A stretch of DNA of 64,000 nucleotides from Dehalococcoidia bacterium (GCA_965248455.1 OZ252105.1:2682722-2746721); one strand, 5' to 3'; positions 11,841 through 62,521 are shown, numbered from the stretch's first letter. Made by a program: numbers and translations. The notes: a model not told the origin generated them from the letters alone.

Positions 11841-12872
11841 CTACAGCGCGTAGAGCCGGGTGGGGTTGTGGTCGAGAATCTTGTCCACCACCGCGGCATC
11901 GAGCCCCCCGCTCTGACGCAGCTTGCGGAGCGCGTTCAGCTCGGAGGCTGTGTCGTTGTGGCCGTAGTCGGTGCCGAGCATCAGGTGATCCTCGCCCGCG
12001 CAATCGATGAGGTAGTCGATGTCGTCGGTGGTCTGCACCGCTACCCAGATGTTGCGCTCTTCCAGCAGTTCGCGCCCCGGCCACGCCATCCCGCGCTTCT
12101 CGAACCGGAGCGATAGGTCGTTCATGGCGTAGGGAACCCACGATGCGCTCAGCTCGACGAACCCCCAGCGCAGATCCGGGAAGGTCTTGTGCATCCCCTT
12201 CATCACGAGGTCATGGAACGCGCCAACGCCCGAGAGCTTGAACACCGAGAAACCGTTATCGCGCCTGAAGTAGTCGAAGAAGGTGAAATTGCCCGTCCCT
12301 GCGTGGATGCAGACCGGCATATCGAGCCGTTGCGCCTCCTCCCAGAGCGGGTGCATGTAGGGGTCGCTCAGTCGATGCGTGCCCTCGATGCCGCGCACGA
12401 ACACCGCGCAGGCGCCGTTCTCCTTGCCGAACTGCATCTCCTCCAGCGACTTGTCGATGGACATCAGCGGCAGCACGACGGCCCACCGGAGCCGCCCGCC
12501 ACCTTGGCGGTAGATGTCCGCGAGCCAGCGGTTGTACCCCATCACCAGCGCCAGCTCTACCTCAGGGTGCGTGGCCAGCGGATTCAGAAACATGGTGGGG
12601 TAGAGGACGTGCATCGAAACCTCGAGTTCGTCCATGTGGGCGAGGCGCTTGGCGATGTCGCTTGCCTCGCGGGTGGCAGCGTCGGTATCAGGGCCCAGGT
12701 TCAGGCCTTTCGTAGAGGCGCGCCCGTCGATATACCAGAACTCAGGAGAAGGACTGATGTAGCCCTCCTTGGGATACAGGACGATAGGCCGCATCGACTG
12801 CATGCTCTCCGGGATGAAATCCCAGGTGTGCTCCGACTCTACGACGTGGGCATCTGCATCGATAACAGCCAC
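11841..12872 (-). CDS. amidohydrolase-2 family (ACMSD-like metal-dependent hydrolase/decarboxylase), tandem copy 1
   Basis: 343 aa; MAVIDADAHVVE (HxH-type metal site), GTDYGHND near the C-terminus. Confidence 0.85.
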   Translation of the reverse strand: MAVIDADAHVVESEHTWDFIPESMQSMRPIVLYPKEGYISPSPEFWYIDGRASTKGLNLGPDTDAATREASDIAKRLAHMDELEVSMHVLYPTMFLNPLATHPEVELALVMGYNRWLADIYRQGGGRLRWAVVLPLMSIDKSLEEMQFGKENGACAVFVRGIEGTHRLSDPYMHPLWEEAQRLDMPVCIHAGTGNFTFFDYFRRDNGFSVFKLSGVGAFHDLVMKGMHKTFPDLRWGFVELSASWVPYAMNDLSLRFEKRGMAWPGRELLEERNIWVAVQTTDDIDYLIDCAGEDHLMLGTDYGHNDTASELNALRKLRQSGGLDAAVVDKILDHNPTRLYAL

Positions 12873-13117: not shown

Positions 13118-14149
13118 CTACAGTGCGTAGAGCCGGGTGGGGTTGTGGTCGAGAATCTTATCCGCTACCGCGTCGTCGAGCCCTCCGTTCTGACGCAGAT
13201 TGCGGAGCGCGTTCAGTTCAGTCGCCGTGTCGTTGTGGCCGTAGTCGGTGCCGAGCACCAGGTGGTCGTCGCCCGCGCAATCGATGATGTAATCGATGTT
13301 GTCGGCGGTTTGGATCGCGACCCATATGTTGCGCTCTGCCAGCAGCTCACGCCCAGGCCACGCCATCCCGCGCTTCTCGAACCGGAGCGACAGGTCGTTC
13401 ATGGCGTAGGGCAGCCACGAGGCGCTCAGTTCGACGAAGCCCCAGCGCAGATCCGGGAAAGTCTTGTGCACACCTTTCATCACGATGTCATGGAACGCGC
13501 CGACGCCGGAGAGCTTGAACGTAGAGAAACCGGCGTCGCGCCCGAAGTAGTCGAAGAAGGAGAAATTCCCCGTCGCTGCGTGGATGCAGACCGGCAGATC
13601 GAGCCGTTGCGCCTCCTCCCAGAGCGGGTGCATATAGGGGTCGCTCAGCCGGTGAGGACCCTCGATGCCGCGCATGAACACTGCGCAGGCGCCGTTCTCC
13701 TTGCCGAACTGCATCTCCTCTATCGACTTGTCGATAGACATAGTGGGCAGCACCACAGCCCACCGGAGCCGTCCGCCGCCCTGGCGGTGGATGTCCGCAA
13801 GCCAGCGGTTGTACCCCATCGCCAGCGCCAGGTCCACCTCGGGGTGCGTGGCCAGCGGACGCAGGAACATGCTGGGGTAGAGGACGTGCATCGAAACATC
13901 GAGTTCGTCCATGTGAGCGAGGCGCTTGGCGATGTCGCTCGCCTCGCGGGTGGCCTCGTCGGTATCGAGGCCGACGTTGACGCCCTTCGTGAACGCGCGT
14001 CCGTCGATATACCAGAACTCAGGAGAGGGGCTCTTGTAGCCCTCCTTGGGGTACAGGACGATGGGCCGCAGCGACTGCATGCTCTCAGGGATGAAATCCC
14101 AGGTACGCTCCGACTCTACGACATGGGCATCTGCATCGATAACCGCCAC
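13118..14149 (-). CDS. amidohydrolase-2 family, tandem copy 2
   Basis: 343 aa, colinear with 11841..12872 with only scattered substitutions. Same motifs; duplication period 1277 bp. Confidence 0.85.
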   Translation of the reverse strand: MAVIDADAHVVESERTWDFIPESMQSLRPIVLYPKEGYKSPSPEFWYIDGRAFTKGVNVGLDTDEATREASDIAKRLAHMDELDVSMHVLYPSMFLRPLATHPEVDLALAMGYNRWLADIHRQGGGRLRWAVVLPTMSIDKSIEEMQFGKENGACAVFMRGIEGPHRLSDPYMHPLWEEAQRLDLPVCIHAATGNFSFFDYFGRDAGFSTFKLSGVGAFHDIVMKGVHKTFPDLRWGFVELSASWLPYAMNDLSLRFEKRGMAWPGRELLAERNIWVAIQTADNIDYIIDCAGDDHLVLGTDYGHNDTATELNALRNLRQNGGLDDAVADKILDHNPTRLYAL

Positions 14150-14381: not shown

Positions 14382-15161
14382 ATGCCTTCGGTAGAGGTTC
14401 TGCTGCACGGGGAATCCATCACCACCAACTACGGCTCGCTCGGCTACTGCAGCACACTGCTCGTGAGGGGAGACCGCCACAACATCATCGTCGACACCGG
14501 ACACGTCGGCAGACGCCGCTCGTTGCTGGCCGTGCTCGCTGAGCGTGACATGCAGCCCTCGGACATCGACGTTGCCGTGATGACGCATGCGCATTGGGAT
14601 CACGCTCAGAACTACGACATATTTGACCACGCGCAGGTGCTCATTCACCGGTGGGAACGGCTGTACGTCCGCAACCCCCACGGCAACGACTGGGCAACCC
14701 CCCGCTGGACGAGCGCGATGCTCGACTCGCTCTCCAACGTCATCGAGGTCGAGGACGGCTACGAGATCGAGCCCGGCGTTCGCGTCCTCCACACGCCCGG
14801 ACACTCGGCGGGTACGATGGCGCTCATCGTCGAAACGCTCCAGGGCCCGGTCGCGGTAACCGGAGACGGCATCGCCCATGCGCAGGTGGCCGTCACCAAG
14901 ATCAACGCCAACATCTTCTGGAACGAGGAAGACTCGCGCCGGAGCATCGAGCGCGTGCTGGAGTCGGCGGAGGTCGTCTACCCCGGGCACGACCTTCCAT
15001 TCCGCGTTCTGCGCGATGGGGGAGTAGAGCATCTGGGCACCCGCCAATTGGAGTTCTACGGCCTTGATCTGAAAGACCCCAAGGTGTCGGTCGACCCGGA
15101 GCGGCGTCCACCGTTCGTCATGCCCAACATCGAAGAGCAGACGCTTGACCGCATCAGCTAG
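14382..15161 (+). CDS. MBL-fold metallo-hydrolase
   Basis: THAHWDHAQN (HxHxDH), HTPGHSAG; good SD (AAAGAGGAG) upstream. Confidence 0.85.
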   Translation: MPSVEVLLHGESITTNYGSLGYCSTLLVRGDRHNIIVDTGHVGRRRSLLAVLAERDMQPSDIDVAVMTHAHWDHAQNYDIFDHAQVLIHRWERLYVRNPHGNDWATPRWTSAMLDSLSNVIEVEDGYEIEPGVRVLHTPGHSAGTMALIVETLQGPVAVTGDGIAHAQVAVTKINANIFWNEEDSRRSIERVLESAEVVYPGHDLPFRVLRDGGVEHLGTRQLEFYGLDLKDPKVSVDPERRPPFVMPNIEEQTLDRIS

Positions 15162-15236: not shown

Positions 15237-15264
15237 TTGACAATGCTTGCGCACGCTGTATGAT
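15237..15264 (+). promoter_or_regulatory. sigma-70-like promoter, RNA unit 1
   Basis: TTGACA (15237-15242), 16-nt spacer, TATGAT (15259-15264). Confidence 0.55.
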
Positions 15265-15270
15265 GCCGCT

Positions 15271-15385
15271 TGTCCTGAGTGACTGAGGATGGAGTGCCAA
15301 GGGAGGCACGCTGGCCGGGCAACCGGACAAGCCGAATCCCGGAAGGCGCCCCGGGCGCCCCGGTTGCTCAGGACACTTTTTTGTT
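15271..15385 (+). ncRNA. unclassified structured RNA, copy 1 (riboswitch-like leader or sRNA) ending in a U-tract
   Basis: P1 GTCCTGAG(15272-79)/CTCAGGAC(15367-74); hairpin GTGCC-AAGGGA-GGCAC(15294-15309); CAACCGG(15320-26)/CCGGTTG(15360-66); CCCGG(15338-42)/CCGGG(15351-55); then ACTTTTTTGTT. Confidence 0.5.
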
Positions 15386-15586
15386 CCTCGCGAACCTCCT
15401 CCACACTCTTGCCGCACAGCGTGATGTCCTGTCGTATCCCGCGCTGTCCACCCGTTGACCTCGCACAGACGGGAGCCTCGCATCCCCCGCCCGCGGATCG
15501 ACCGGGCGAGGGCGGTGCGTAGCGAGGAGCAACGCCTCTCCATCGTTCCTCTATCGGGAACCCAGGGAAATTGCTTGCGAAAATAC

Positions 15587-15616
15587 TTGACAATGCTTGC
15601 GTATGCTGTAATGCTG
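15587..15616 (+). promoter_or_regulatory. sigma-70-like promoter, RNA unit 2
   Basis: TTGACA (15587-15592) in the same ATGCTTGCG context as unit 1. The -10 is less clear (TGTAAT/TAATGC around 15607-15616). Confidence 0.45.
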
Positions 15617-15620
15617 CCGT

Positions 15621-15739
15621 TTGTCCTGAGTGACTGAGGATTGGGTAGCCCCAAGGGAGGCTGGCGAACCGGGCAACCGGAGAGCCGAACCCCGGAACGG
15701 CAGCCCGGGCGCCCTGGTTGCTCAGGACACTTTTTTGTT
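15621..15739 (+). ncRNA. unclassified structured RNA, copy 2, immediately upstream of the glcG-like operon
   Basis: Same four helices: GTCCTGAG(15623-30)/CTCAGGAC(15721-28). The hairpin stem changes to AGCC/GGCT around the same AAGGGA loop (compensatory change). CAACCGG/CTGGTTG keeps pairing through a G.U. Ends in ACTTTTTTGTT. Confidence 0.5.
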
Positions 15740-15824
15740 CATCGCGACCCTCTCCTCCCAGCCCGCCGTCCCCCAACGTGCGCCCGTTTGCGCTATCCTC
15801 CCTCCGACAAGGAGGACGCAACCC

Positions 15825-16226
15825 GTGGAACCGCTTACCCTCGACGAAGCAGCCCGCATGTTATCCAAGGCCCGCGCCAAGGCCGAGGAGATGGGCATCA
15901 GAGTAACCATGGCCGTCCTCGACCCTCGCGGCGACCTCCTGGCGTTGCACCGGATGGACGGCGCGCTCTGGCGCAGCGTCCCCATTTCGCAGGGCAAGGC
16001 CGCCGCCTCCGCGGCATGGGACACCCCCAGTGGAGAGCTGGCTGAACGCTGGGATCAGCCCGTCGTCCGAGCGTTCGCGATGATGGAGAACGGAAGGCTC
16101 ATTCCAGGGCAGGGCGCTCTCCCGATCCGACGCCCCGACGGCACGATGGTCGGTGCGATCGGCGTCAGCGGCGCCCGTCCCGCTCAGGACGAGGCCGTCG
16201 CGCAGGCCGGATTGGACGCGCTTTAA
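15825..16226 (+). CDS. GlcG/HbpS-like (DUF336) heme-binding family protein
   Basis: In frame with ORF 15630..16226. GTG 15825 lies 8 nt after AAGGAGGA. GAIGVSGA and QDEAVA motifs typical of DUF336. Confidence 0.75.
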   Translation: MEPLTLDEAARMLSKARAKAEEMGIRVTMAVLDPRGDLLALHRMDGALWRSVPISQGKAAASAAWDTPSGELAERWDQPVVRAFAMMENGRLIPGQGALPIRRPDGTMVGAIGVSGARPAQDEAVAQAGLDAL

Positions 16227-16235
16227 GCGCCCGCC

Positions 16236-17312
16236 ATGACCGGGAGTTTCCACATCAGAGAAGAAGACGCCGTCCGCGTGATGGCTGACCCCCTCCGTGA
16301 GATGGTAACCGCGCTGTTCGAGAGGGCCGGCGTGCCCCAGGACGACGCTCGCCTCGCCGCTGATGTCGTCATTGCTGCCGACCTGCGCGGCGTCGACAGC
16401 CACGGTGTCTCCAACATGCTCAAAGTTTACCTCGACCGCTACCTCGACGGTACGCAGAACCCAACGCCCGACTGGAAGATCGTGCGCGAGCGCTCCGCGT
16501 CCGCCAACATAGACTGCGACCGCGGCCTCGGCATCATCCTCGCGCCCAAGGCGATGCAGATCGCCATCGAGAAGGCCCGTGCGTGCGGCGTCGGCGTCGT
16601 TACGCTGTTCAACAGCGGGCACGTGGGCATGGCGGCCTATCACGCGATGCTTGCCCTCGAGCACGACATGATAGGCATGTGCATGACGGCCGCAGGCCCC
16701 GCCGTGCTTCCCACCTTTGGCCGCATCCCCCGCCTGGGAACCAACCCCATCGCCATAGCTGTCCCGACGCTCAACCAGCGTGCGTGGGTATTCGACATGG
16801 CGACGAGTGTCGTGCCGGTCAACAAGGTGCGCAACGCCCGCAGGATGGGCACGCTGCTGCCCCCCGGCGTTATCGCCGACAGCGAGGGCACGCCCATCAT
16901 GGAGCCCACGCCCGTGCCCGCCGACTTTCAGCTGCTCCCCCTCGGCACCGATCGCGGCGCAGGCTCGCACAAGGGATACGGACTCGCAGCTGCGGTCGAC
17001 ATCCTCTGCTCCGTGCTCGCCGGCGCTGACCACGGTATGCGTTCCGGACGCCAGATATTCCGCCACTACGTCGCCGCCTACGACATCGACGCGTTCAGCG
17101 ACGTCGGTGAGTTCAAGGCGCGCATGGACGATTTCATCACGGAGCTGAAGGCCACTCCCCCCGCTGCCGGACACGAGCGCGTGATGGTCGCCGGAGAGCC
17201 CGAGTGGGAAGCCCTCGACGAACGCTCCGTGCGAGGCATACCCCTCCACCACGATGTCGTCGACTGGCTCAGAGACGCATGCGCCGAGTTCGGCGTCGAT
17301 TGCAACATCTGA
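16236..17312 (+). CDS. Ldh_2 family (malate/L-lactate/sulfolactate dehydrogenase type 2) oxidoreductase
   Basis: 358 aa; DLRGVDSHGV, GTNPIAIAVP, GSHKGYGLA hallmark strings. Confidence 0.85.
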   Translation: MTGSFHIREEDAVRVMADPLREMVTALFERAGVPQDDARLAADVVIAADLRGVDSHGVSNMLKVYLDRYLDGTQNPTPDWKIVRERSASANIDCDRGLGIILAPKAMQIAIEKARACGVGVVTLFNSGHVGMAAYHAMLALEHDMIGMCMTAAGPAVLPTFGRIPRLGTNPIAIAVPTLNQRAWVFDMATSVVPVNKVRNARRMGTLLPPGVIADSEGTPIMEPTPVPADFQLLPLGTDRGAGSHKGYGLAAAVDILCSVLAGADHGMRSGRQIFRHYVAAYDIDAFSDVGEFKARMDDFITELKATPPAAGHERVMVAGEPEWEALDERSVRGIPLHHDVVDWLRDACAEFGVDCNI

Positions 17313-17347
17313 GCCACGCCCCGCAACAGAGAGAGGACGTCAGCAGC

Positions 17348-18331
17348 ATGAAAGCAGCTTGGTATGAGCAGTACGGCCCCGCGAGTGAGGTGTTTCACGT
17401 CGGAGACCTCCCTGACCCGGAAGCAGCGCCCGGAGAGGTGCTGGTTCGCGTGCGCGCGTCAGGCGTCAACCCTTCCGACTGGAAGTCCCGCACCGGCTCT
17501 CGCGGCCCGCAGATGCCATTCCCCCGGATCGTTCCGCACAGCGACGGCGCAGGGACGATTGAGGCGGTCGGCACAGGCGTCGACGCTTCCCGCGTAGGCC
17601 AACGCGTGTGGCTGTTCGAAGGCCAATGGCAGAGGCCGTTCGGCACAGCCGCCGAGTACATCGCATTGCCATCCGAGCACGCCGTGCCCCTCGCGGAAAA
17701 CGTGAGTTTCGAGGAGGGCGCCTGCATCGGCATCCCCGCCATGACTGCCCATCGCTGTCTGTTCGCCAGCGGGCCGGTTCAGGGCTTCACCGTCCTCGTT
17801 ACCGGCGGCGCGGGCGCTGTTGGCCACTACGCCATCCAGCTTGCCAAGTGGGGAGGCGCGACAGTCATAGCCACCGTCAGCTCCGACGAGAAGGCGGCGC
17901 ATGCCAGGCACTCCGGCGCGGACCATACGGTCAACTACCGCACGGAGGACACCGCAGCGCGCGTGCTCGAACTGACCGGCGGCGAGGGCGTCGAGCGCAT
18001 CGTCGAGGTCGATTTCGGCGGCAACATCGCAGTGAACCAGCGTGCGCTCAAACTCAACGGCGCGATCGGCTGCTACGCCTCCACCGGCCACCGCGAACCG
18101 GCGGTGGAGTACCAGGCGTTCTCACGGAAGAACGTCACGGTTCACTTTGTGCTCGTGTACTCGGAGCCGGAGCAGGCCAAGCGCCAAGCCGTGGAGGACA
18201 TCACCAGCGCCATCTCGACCGGCGCGCTCACGCACCCCATCGCCGCGACGATGCCCCTCAGCGAGATCGCAGCCGCTCACGAATTGCAGGAGAGCAACAC
18301 CGCCATCGGCAATATCATCATCACCGTGTAG
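17348..18331 (+). CDS. zinc-type alcohol dehydrogenase/NADPH:quinone oxidoreductase (MDR family)
   Basis: ORF 17204..18331. Start at MKAAWYEQYG (ATG 17348); VLVTGGAGAVGHYAIQLAK Rossmann motif. Confidence 0.85.
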   Translation: MKAAWYEQYGPASEVFHVGDLPDPEAAPGEVLVRVRASGVNPSDWKSRTGSRGPQMPFPRIVPHSDGAGTIEAVGTGVDASRVGQRVWLFEGQWQRPFGTAAEYIALPSEHAVPLAENVSFEEGACIGIPAMTAHRCLFASGPVQGFTVLVTGGAGAVGHYAIQLAKWGGATVIATVSSDEKAAHARHSGADHTVNYRTEDTAARVLELTGGEGVERIVEVDFGGNIAVNQRALKLNGAIGCYASTGHREPAVEYQAFSRKNVTVHFVLVYSEPEQAKRQAVEDITSAISTGALTHPIAATMPLSEIAAAHELQESNTAIGNIIITV

Positions 18332-22033: not shown

Positions 22034-22194
22034 CGTCGTCCCCGCGCAGGCTCAGGTCCCTTCTCCCTCGAGGGGAGAAGGTTAGGATGAGGGTGACGGG
22101 GGATGGGTGCAGGGGCGGTTCCCCTCCGTCGTTCCCGCGAAGGCTCAGGTCCCTTCTCCCTTGAGGGGAGAAGGTTAGGATGAGGGTGACGGGG
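22034..22194. repeat. two direct copies of a palindromic unit: (CGTCGTYCCCGCGMAGG)CTCAGGTCCCTTCTCCCTYGAGGGGAGAAGGTTAGGATGAGGGTGACGGGG
   Basis: Copies at about 22034-22101 and 22126-22194. Each holds the hairpin CCCTTCTCCC/GGGGAGAAGG. Confidence 0.85.
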
Positions 22195-22554: not shown

Positions 22555-22910
22555 CCAACCGTCACCCCCGCGAAGGCGCTCAGATCCCCTCGCCCTCTGG
22601 GAGAGGGTTAGGGTGAGGGTTCGGAAATGGGTCGAAATGGAAGGAAATGGAAGCGAATTAAAAGTTTGCCGCTCCTGGCCGCTCGTAATGAACCCGCCCC
22701 AACCGTCACCCCCGCGAAGGCGCTCAGATTCCCTCGCCCTCTGGGAGAGGGTTAGGGTGAGGGTTCGGAAATGGGTCGAAATGGAAGGAAATGGAAGCGA
22801 ATTAAAAGTTTGCCGCTCCTGGCCACTTGTAATGAACCCGCCCCAACCGTCGCCCCCGCGAAGGTGCTCAGACCCCCTCGCCCTCTGGGAGAGGGTTAAG
22901 GTGAGGGTGC
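22555..22910. repeat. 144-bp tandem repeat, about 2.5 copies
   Basis: The CAGAT landmark recurs at 22581, 22725, 22869. Each unit is the hairpin CCCTCGCCCTCTGGGAGAGGGTTAGGGTGAGGGT plus GGAAATGGGTCGAAATGGAAGGAAATGGAAGCGAATTAAAAGTTTGCCGCTCCTGGCC. Confidence 0.9.
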
Positions 22911-62444: not shown

Positions 62445-62521
62445 AGGAGTGTAGCTCAGCCTGGTAGAGCAGCGGTCTCCAAAACCGCCGGCCGAGGGTT
62501 CGAATCCTTCCACTCCTGCCA
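62445..62521 (+). tRNA. tRNA-Trp (anticodon CCA)
   Basis: Acceptor AGGAGTG/CACTCCT, anticodon loop CTCCAAA, GGTTCGAATCC, encoded CCA. Confidence 0.9.

Follow-up and report, generated by a model that had tools for sequence, protein, structure and literature searches.

The window analyzed here, a 64,000-nucleotide stretch of a Dehalococcoidia bacterium genome (GCA_965248455.1 OZ252105.1:2682722-2746721; 63.5% G+C over its 64 kb), carries two similar units in tandem, each made up of a predicted promoter, a predicted structured RNA and a U-tract. The units lie between a gene for a metallo-beta-lactamase-fold protein (MBL) and an operon encoding an HbpS-like/GlcG protein, an Ldh_2 protein and a zinc-ADH/quinone-oxidoreductase-like protein (QOR) (Table 1). 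An original prediction, made from the sequence of the window alone, had described just such an arrangement: two similar promoter-RNA-terminator units 350 base pairs (bp) apart, upstream of a GlcG/Ldh_2/quinone-oxidoreductase operon, the second ending 85 nucleotides (nt) before a glcG-like start. It holds in each of these respects. All three gene types are found downstream, the unit starts are offset by 350 bp, the mean column identity of the two units is 85% over 211 columns, and unit 2 ends 85 nt before the glcG-like GTG at 15825. Both units carry TTGACAATGCTTGCG; the TTGACA of each is embedded in the shared context CTTGACAATGCTTGCG, again as predicted; and GTCCTGAGTGACTGAGGAT and GGTTGCTCAGGACACTTTTTTG are exact in both, with chance expectations in the window of 0.03 and 0.00, respectively. 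The + strand of the window contains six T6 runs and five TTGACA hexamers, two of each falling in the units, and the folding energies of the two RNAs give z = -3.6 and -3.4 against dinucleotide shuffles.

Table 1. Features of the tandem RNA locus and its neighboring genes, in window positions.
Feature	Position	Strand	Remarks
Unit 1 (promoter, RNA and U-tract)	15237-15385	+	From pairwise alignment with unit 2
Promoter, copy 1	15237-15264	+	-35 TTGACA 15237-15242, 16-nt spacer, -10 TATGAT 15259-15264; 11/12 consensus match
RNA copy 1, predicted 103-nt rod	15272-15374	+	Model score 100.7 bits
P1 of RNA copy 1	15272-15285 (5' strand); 15361-15374 (3' strand)	+	
Bulge and GG step of RNA copy 1	15286 (bulge A); 15287-15288 (GG)	+	
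Apical hairpin and invariant GGGCGCCC of RNA copy 1	15315-15326 (hairpin); 15353-15360 (GGGCGCCC)	+	Hairpin CCGG-GCAA-CCGG
U6 tract, copy 1	15377-15382	+	Two nt past P1; with P1, an intrinsic-terminator-like site
Unit 2 (promoter, RNA and U-tract)	15587-15739	+	From pairwise alignment with unit 1
Promoter, copy 2	15587-15615	+	-35 TTGACA 15587-15592; weaker -10 TAATGC/AATGCT 15609-15615
RNA copy 2, predicted 106-nt rod	15623-15728	+	Model score 114.1 bits
P1 of RNA copy 2	15623-15636 (5' strand); 15715-15728 (3' strand)	+	
Apical hairpin and GGGCGCCC of RNA copy 2	15669-15680 (hairpin); 15707-15714 (GGGCGCCC)	+	Hairpin CCGG-GCAA-CCGG
U6 tract, copy 2	15731-15736	+	Two nt past P1
Spacer, copy 2 to glcG	15740-15824	+	C-rich, G-poor; conserved GCGCTATCCT 15790-15799
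HbpS-like/GlcG	15825-16226	+	First gene downstream; operon span 15825-18331
Ldh_2	16236-17312	+	Second downstream gene
Zinc-ADH/quinone-oxidoreductase-like (QOR)	17348-18331	+	Third downstream gene
Metallo-beta-lactamase-fold protein (MBL)	14382-15161	+	Upstream neighbor of copy 1

Relatives of the locus were sought with the Ldh_2 protein as query, and the contigs encoding its relatives were then examined (related loci carry numbers with the prefix L). Homologues, for which the original prediction had suggested a search, are indeed present: the same tandem pair occurs on four contigs with 97% Ldh_2 identity, and single RNA copies lie upstream of glcG in seven more divergent lineages. Among RNA-bearing loci, Ldh_2 identity to the window is 77% in L028, 76% in L032-34 and L037, 76% in L035, 81% in L036 and 71% in L038. 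L029, on a JGI/GenBank metagenome contig, is a true homologue that came from a metagenome scan with the pattern of the closing helix of the RNA (P1, described below); the two other matches of that scan are due to chance. As far as the sources name them, the RNA-bearing hosts are uncultured Chloroflexota. The resulting set comprises 9 lineages with 11 distinct sequences, on which the alignment and a covariance model were built, and promoter, RNA and U-tract are kept as one unit throughout it. Searching the 64-kb window and 325 kb of related loci with this model returned no further copy. A genome-collection scan with the pattern AAGGGAGG..CCGGGCAACCGG gave 18 loci, all of them chance matches in unrelated taxa; since that pattern is specific to the window lineage, the scan is uninformative on the spread of the RNA family. 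Viral contigs, phage records and plasmid records yielded chance matches only, or none, and an exact look-up of the window Ldh_2 protein gave no record.

The family does not correspond to one already described. At gathering thresholds Rfam 15 detects only tRNAs in the whole window, and at E<=10 the region 15150-15850 matches only Actinomyces-1 (17.3 bits, gathering threshold 39.1) and mir-341 (14.2 bits, gathering threshold 90). The Actinomyces-1 match covers copy 2 only and, at that score, is noise. No Rfam match overlaps the RNA at four homologous loci. The original prediction could name no known class and remarked that the RNA recalls the SAM-I/IV core without otherwise fitting it, a judgment with which we agree, as cmscan reports no SAM-I/IV match even at E<=10. 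The resemblance is limited to the short GCUGGCCGGGCAACC, which here is the apical CCGG-GCAA-CCGG hairpin and differs in the other lineages; no sulfur or methionine genes were seen near the locus. Literature searches, by sequence and for small RNAs of Chloroflexota, found no earlier description of the RNA. Judged by these comparisons, it is a conserved structured RNA of a family absent from Rfam and from the searched literature. The family is new, but of an ordinary kind, that of the bacterial small structured RNA, and its known distribution is narrow.

The homologues support a revision of the proposed fold. The original prediction envisaged a four-helix RNA in which an outer helix stacks on a CAACCGG/CYGGUUG helix that encloses a CCCGG/CCGGG hairpin and a small hairpin with an invariant AAGGGA(GG) loop; the comparison points instead to a single, long imperfect rod capped by a GNRA loop. 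From its base, the rod would consist of a 14-bp helix (P1), a 1-nt bulge, a GG/CC step, an invariant GGCG bulge on the 3' side, a 5-bp helix (P2), variable arms and the apex. P1 pairs GUCCUGAGUGRCYG with CRGYYGCUCRGGAC, and GG/CC extends it past the 1-nt bulge. The proposed outer helix thus survives, in that GUCCUGAG/CUCAGGAC is conserved within P1, prolonged by UGRCYG/CRGYYG, while the four-helix arrangement around it does not. The 16 pairs of P1 and GG/CC are standard pairs in 100% of cells of the 11-sequence alignment, with one double change from A-U to G-C (L035) and five pairs showing one-sided changes, and P1 has a predicted mean pairing probability of 0.92-1.00. Pairing of P2 holds in 84% of cells, with covariation between A-U and G-C. 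At the center of every sequence is a CGG-GNRA-CYG hairpin, with GCAA, GGGA, GAGA or GAAA as its loop, and the arms between P2 and this apex, although strongly divergent among three subgroups, pair into the rod in each. Overall the core helices are 96% paired and contain three pairs with double changes; in this shallow sample of 11 sequences, 24 of 500 shuffles reach that number of double-changed pairs and 7 of 500 reach the covariation score. The few conserved unpaired nucleotides are the W bulge and GGCG, and the conserved nucleotides as a whole are concentrated in the bulged region beside P1, the distal part being variable. Energetically, the rod is the minimum free energy (MFE) fold for the L029/L032/L037, L035/L036 and L038 types; window-type sequences with the GCAA hairpin enforced adopt the same kind of rod 0-2.9 kcal/mol above the MFE. 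Across all sequences it is either the MFE or 0.4-3 kcal/mol off it, and RNAalifold returns a 38-bp consensus rod for the L028/29/32/37 subgroup.

The inner elements of the four-helix proposal are not shared in this way. The CCCGG/CCGGG hairpin is paired in 68% of cells and the AAGGGA hairpin in 35-50%; its loop, AAGGGAGG, is absent outside the window lineage in the homologue sequences compared, and both the Shine-Dalgarno (SD)-like character of the loop and the CCUCCUCC tract that the prediction saw after each terminator are specific to that lineage. The CAACCGG/CYGGUUG helix is paired in 87% of cells with two double changes, yet the energy of the duplex between the apical region and the 3' strand is no better than that of dinucleotide-shuffled interiors in 6 of 8 lineages, so we regard this helix as a by-product of the GC-rich, CCGG-rich composition. 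Folds proposed from two paralogues alone can mislead in GC-rich sequence. We think it very improbable that the four-helix RNA is nevertheless the functional form, with its SD-like AAGGGAGG loop meeting CCUCC-type tracts or the anti-SD of the glcG leader. That model would accommodate the two compensatory changes that separate the small hairpins of the copies (GUGCC/GGCAC versus (U/C)AGCC/GGCUG), which are real in the window lineage, as well as the complementarity of AGGGAGG to CCUCCCU at 15797-15803, and a four-way alternative (P1, P2 and three hairpins) lies only 2-9 kcal/mol above the rod. But the other seven lineages conserve neither the loop sequence nor the inner helices, base composition explains CAACCGG/CYGGUUG, and cognate pairs of RNA and glcG leader are no more complementary than non-cognate ones (cognate ranks 1-11 of 11, without a trend). 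For the same lack of cognate preference we rejected the idea of an RNA loop that opens an SD hairpin of glcG (an anti-anti-SD). What does stand of the original argument is its claim of selection on RNA structure.

Conservation extends to the geometry of the transcription unit. In every lineage the promoter consists of TTGACA (TTGACC in L038), a 16-19-nt spacer and TAnnnT, which is a match to consensus and not a measure of expression; the weaker -10 of copy 2 reads TATGGT in the close relative L001. A/T-rich sequence lies 5' of the -35 in most lineages, and copy 1 in the window has such a stretch. P1 begins 6-7 nt past the -10 hexamer in all lineages, and the predicted +1 should be the first G of GUCCUGAG, at the base of P1, or within 1-2 nt of it. 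At the other end, U4-U7 comes no more than 1-2 nt after the GC-rich closing helix of 14-16 bp. Such a transcript would be a closed hairpin of ~110 nt with its 5' and 3' ends paired to each other. A tRNA gene in the same window (62445-62518) has its encoded CCA directly followed by U6 (to 62527), so the combination of a stable-RNA terminal helix and a U-tract occurs elsewhere in this genome; the acceptor stem of that tRNA may act as a terminator stem, much like the closing helix of the RNA studied here. A short GUCC(U)G-like segment past the U-tract can pair with the GGAC end of P1 in L038 (1155-1178), L035 (2415-2436) and L037 (2149-2172), and such pairing would leave the U-tract looped out between the two strands of a hairpin (GGACGC-UUUU-GCGUCC in L035, for example).

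The signs of selection point to the RNA. The U.G and G.U pairs conserved in P1 would be mismatches on the opposite strand, and the model scores the + strand at 96-117 bits versus 14-26 bits for the reverse strand; we take the selected molecule, therefore, to be the + strand RNA. A 40-nt core, made up of the 5' 17 nt, GGGCGCCC and the 3' strand of P1, keeps 88-95% identity to the window in lineages where the neighboring Ldh_2 gene matches it at only 49-59% of third codon positions, a pattern indicating strong purifying selection on the core. When the two copies in the window are compared, both strands of P1, the GGGCGCCC core and the U-tract together show a single difference, and the promoters are nearly identical (the -35 and most of the spacer), while arms and flanks have diverged. 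Both copies therefore appear to be maintained, each with its own promoter. Coding is unlikely, as only copy 1 has the start of the open reading frame (ORF) at 15289-15522, and indels among homologues are not multiples of three. It is also improbable, in our estimation, that the sequences have no dedicated RNA function and represent a DNA-level or selfish element (palindromic, promoter-bearing and similar to a miniature inverted-repeat transposable element, MITE), or a plain terminator or insulator between MBL and the operon. Long terminal inverted repeats, the short GUCC(U)G-like repeat past the U-tract in several lineages, and the palindromes resembling repetitive extragenic palindromic (REP) sequences that are common in these genomes and inserted nearby would all suit such an element. 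However, each genome fragment examined has the element at one locus only, and neither the 64-kb window nor the 325 kb of related loci contains a further copy; position, orientation, GNRA apex, promoter and start-site geometry are all conserved; the G.U pairs are strand-specific; and the core is under the strong purifying selection just described.

We favor the possibility that the window encodes a pair of stand-alone, self-terminating sibling small RNAs (sRNAs) in which the conserved bulged base would be recognized, probably by a protein, and we judge this reading about equally likely to be right or wrong. On this model a sigma-70-type promoter would start transcription at the base of P1, the transcript would fold into one long imperfect hairpin, and the closing helix would double as the stem of an intrinsic terminator, such that most transcripts end as a discrete RNA of ~110 nt. 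The base of the rod, conserved in sequence beyond what pairing requires, would most likely be the recognition site for the putative protein partner, which the RNA would bind, titrate or scaffold; the variable arms would need only to preserve the shape of the rod. The glcG-Ldh_2 operon would be a linked neighbor, independent of the RNA, with start signals of its own or expressed by mere read-through. The original prediction had considered a tandem riboswitch or attenuator and two independent sRNA genes equally possible. The former is weakened by the lack of a conserved antiterminator, the retention of both promoters and the existence of operons that have no RNA, and independent sRNA genes are now the somewhat better option.

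Known sRNAs offer partial precedents for this arrangement. The sibling sRNAs AbcR1/AbcR2, PrrF1/PrrF2 and LhrC1-5 are encoded by tandem genes, each with a promoter and a Rho-independent terminator, and they act via exposed single-stranded seeds, usually with Hfq. Like them, the units described here are duplicated head to tail, with promoter and terminator kept and the RNA body partly diverged; unlike them, the rod is almost fully paired, and neither a conserved seed nor pairing with a cognate target was detected. In shape the rod matches 4.5S/signal recognition particle (SRP) RNA, Y RNA and 6S RNA, which are rod-shaped stable RNAs with paired 5' and 3' ends. It shares with these a length of ~100 nt, a conserved bulged basal stem, a variable distal part and a 3' U-tract, and its apex is of the GNRA type, as in 4.5S. 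It differs from SRP RNA in that the base is conserved here and the apex there, and from 6S RNA in having no large central bubble. None of the SRP, Y and 6S RNA models in Rfam matches at E<=10, and no Ro or Ffh gene context was seen. Several other RNA types were considered and rejected: a hammerhead, because its CUGAGGA box occurs only in the window lineage; an ANTAR target, because dual hexaloops are absent; a TRAP site, because the GAG repeats are wrongly spaced; and a CsrA site, because GGA motifs lie outside the conserved loops. No reverse transcriptase, integrase or recombinase gene lies close by, and the inverted segment measures just 75 bp, which speaks against a retron, an integron attC site or an invertible promoter.

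A number of observations weigh against stand-alone sRNAs and bear on a serious rival, namely that each RNA is a cis-acting leader of glcG-Ldh_2-QOR, either an attenuator or a riboswitch with a terminator-embedded sensor. We regard this as possible, although clearly less probable. The RNA promoter would then be the operon promoter, the rod and U-tract would stop most transcription, and a ligand or RNA-binding protein at the conserved base would modulate termination, recognizing the 5' strand GUCCUGAGUGRCYGWGG and/or the GGCG bulge; the window lineage would have two such units in series. One pointer is place: the RNA is upstream of glcG(HbpS-like)-Ldh_2 and co-oriented with it in 9 of 9 RNA-bearing lineages, directly before glcG despite rearranged upstream flanks (MBL, ABM or a divergent carbonic anhydrase), a constancy usually read as cis-regulation. 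Of the four related loci without the RNA (L005, L026, L027 and L007), L007 lacks glcG as well. The RNA's own promoter is the only consensus-like sigma-70 promoter found in each RNA-bearing intergenic region, with the exception of L036, where the promoter scan found none. The rod leaves almost no conserved single-stranded seed with which an sRNA could act, and the clustering of conserved nucleotides in the bulged region by P1, above a variable distal part, would suit a sensor. U-tracts are weak or interrupted in L028/29/32/35. In 7 of 9 cases the 60 nt past the U-tract are rich in C and poor in G, which suggests that read-through transcripts matter.

The leader between RNA and glcG has features of its own. 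The C-rich stretches occupy 15386-15445 and 15740-15799 in the window and the same position in L028, L029, L032 and L036 (C 24-31 versus G 11-16); their composition is rut-like and might load Rho on read-through transcripts. A possible hairpin at 15788-15821 would pair UCCUCC with the GGAGGA SD sequence of glcG (-14.6 kcal/mol, z -1.2), and a matching SD-sequestering hairpin can form in L029 at 1979-2014 (-23.3 kcal/mol, z -2.5); if formed, it could be counted in favor of a cis-acting leader. Its 5' strand overlaps a conserved GCG(C/G)TATNCT element, whose TATNCT is found in 7 loci, RNA-bearing and RNA-less alike, 17-28 nt upstream of the glcG start. This element may be the operon's own -10 box, or it may be an RNA element; as a -10-like sequence that is also present at RNA-less loci, it counts against a leader that supplies the operon promoter. 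Among loci, glcG starts anywhere from 85 to about 430 nt past the RNA, with palindromic repeats inserted in between, and spacers of the upper length are likewise awkward for a leader. The operon, moreover, is retained without the RNA in L005, L026 and L027; L005 has an apparent remnant of the U-tract region.

The structure of the RNA also fits poorly with switching. No conserved antiterminator was found. The apical region, the best candidate for an internal competitor, does no better than chance: its complementarity to the 3' strand gives z<=-2.5 in just 2 of the 8 lineages, and for the 5' strand no conserved complementarity was seen. We rejected a switch with the apical region and the 5' strand as rival partners of the P1 3' strand, its 87% paired cells notwithstanding, since it does not exceed dinucleotide shuffles in most lineages. 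With the predicted +1 at the base of P1, nothing upstream can compete with this helix, which is predicted to form with the high mean probability given above. P1 is itself nearly invariant in sequence, which is unusual for riboswitch P1 helices, and each tandem copy has retained its own selected promoter. The HMP-PP riboswitch, or thiS motif, is a terminator-embedded aptamer with a competing antiterminator and a short terminator hairpin. The rod resembles it in having conserved nucleotides inside a terminator hairpin upstream of a metabolic operon; unlike thiS, the hairpin here is about 100 nt long and very stable, begins at the predicted +1, and lacks a conserved competing structure. Slightly less probable again, in our view, is the specific proposal that the rod is a new class of terminator-embedded metabolite or protein sensor controlling the glcG-Ldh_2-oxidoreductase operon. 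If it were, the binding pocket would be the bulged base (W bulge, GG/CC, GGCG and P2), and the window lineage would have a complete tandem pair with a promoter for each copy.

An independent riboswitch candidate tied to Ldh_2 genes lends the cis-acting view some plausibility and counts against stand-alone sRNAs. The ldh2 motif (SRC-18-2) is an orphan riboswitch candidate found upstream of Ldh_2-family operons in Negativicutes and described as a three-stem junction in which P3 is long and bulged and P4 masks the ribosome-binding site (Brewer et al. 2021, PMC8632094). Both are structured RNAs upstream of operons encoding Ldh_2-family dehydrogenases. Compared by description only, the RNA reported here is set apart as an unbranched rod whose closing helix abuts a U-tract, that occurs in Chloroflexota and has glcG as its first gene downstream, and it ends in a U-tract that precedes the start codon by 85 to about 430 nt. 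If the reading as a terminator-embedded sensor were true, Ldh_2-family enzymes would have, besides the ldh2 motif, another regulatory RNA class associated with them, unrelated in structure to the first.

The surroundings of the locus show other duplications and repeats. Two Amidohydro_2 genes in tandem (11841-12872 and 13118-14149, both on the - strand) share 89% protein identity and represent a second recent duplication nearby. A 68-nt repeat family at 22034-22101, 22127-22194 and 22560-22627 has an internal palindrome, CCTTCTCCCTCGAGGGGAGAAGG, and a REP-like look; palindromes like these, CCCTCTCCC...GGGAGAGGG, are inserted between RNA and glcG in L037, and in L027 a tandem array of the ~30-nt CCCCCTTCAGGGGGCCGGGGG fills the spacer before glcG. 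Close relatives such as L001 (7141-7734) have an extra ~600-bp ORF (197 amino acids, with a faint DUF4131 match) between Ldh_2 and QOR, which the corresponding gap in the window (17313-17347) lacks. In L038 (1466-1520) the glcG homologue seems to be cut off by a stop soon after its conserved N-terminus (MEPLTLEEATRACWPRP*), which may reflect a frameshift, an assembly error or a pseudogene.

Chloroflexota are mostly uncultured, and almost nothing is known of their non-coding RNAs. The family described here is cleanly delimited, under strong selection and equipped with a clear promoter, start-site and terminator geometry, and its members are small enough for direct biochemistry. If the RNA acts in trans, as we favor, it would add, from beyond the well-studied phyla, a rare case of a rod-shaped small RNA that probably binds a protein. 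If it proves instead to act in cis, it would provide a handle on the substrate of the widespread GlcG/Ldh_2/oxidoreductase gene set, and might help to find the ligand of the ldh2 motif.

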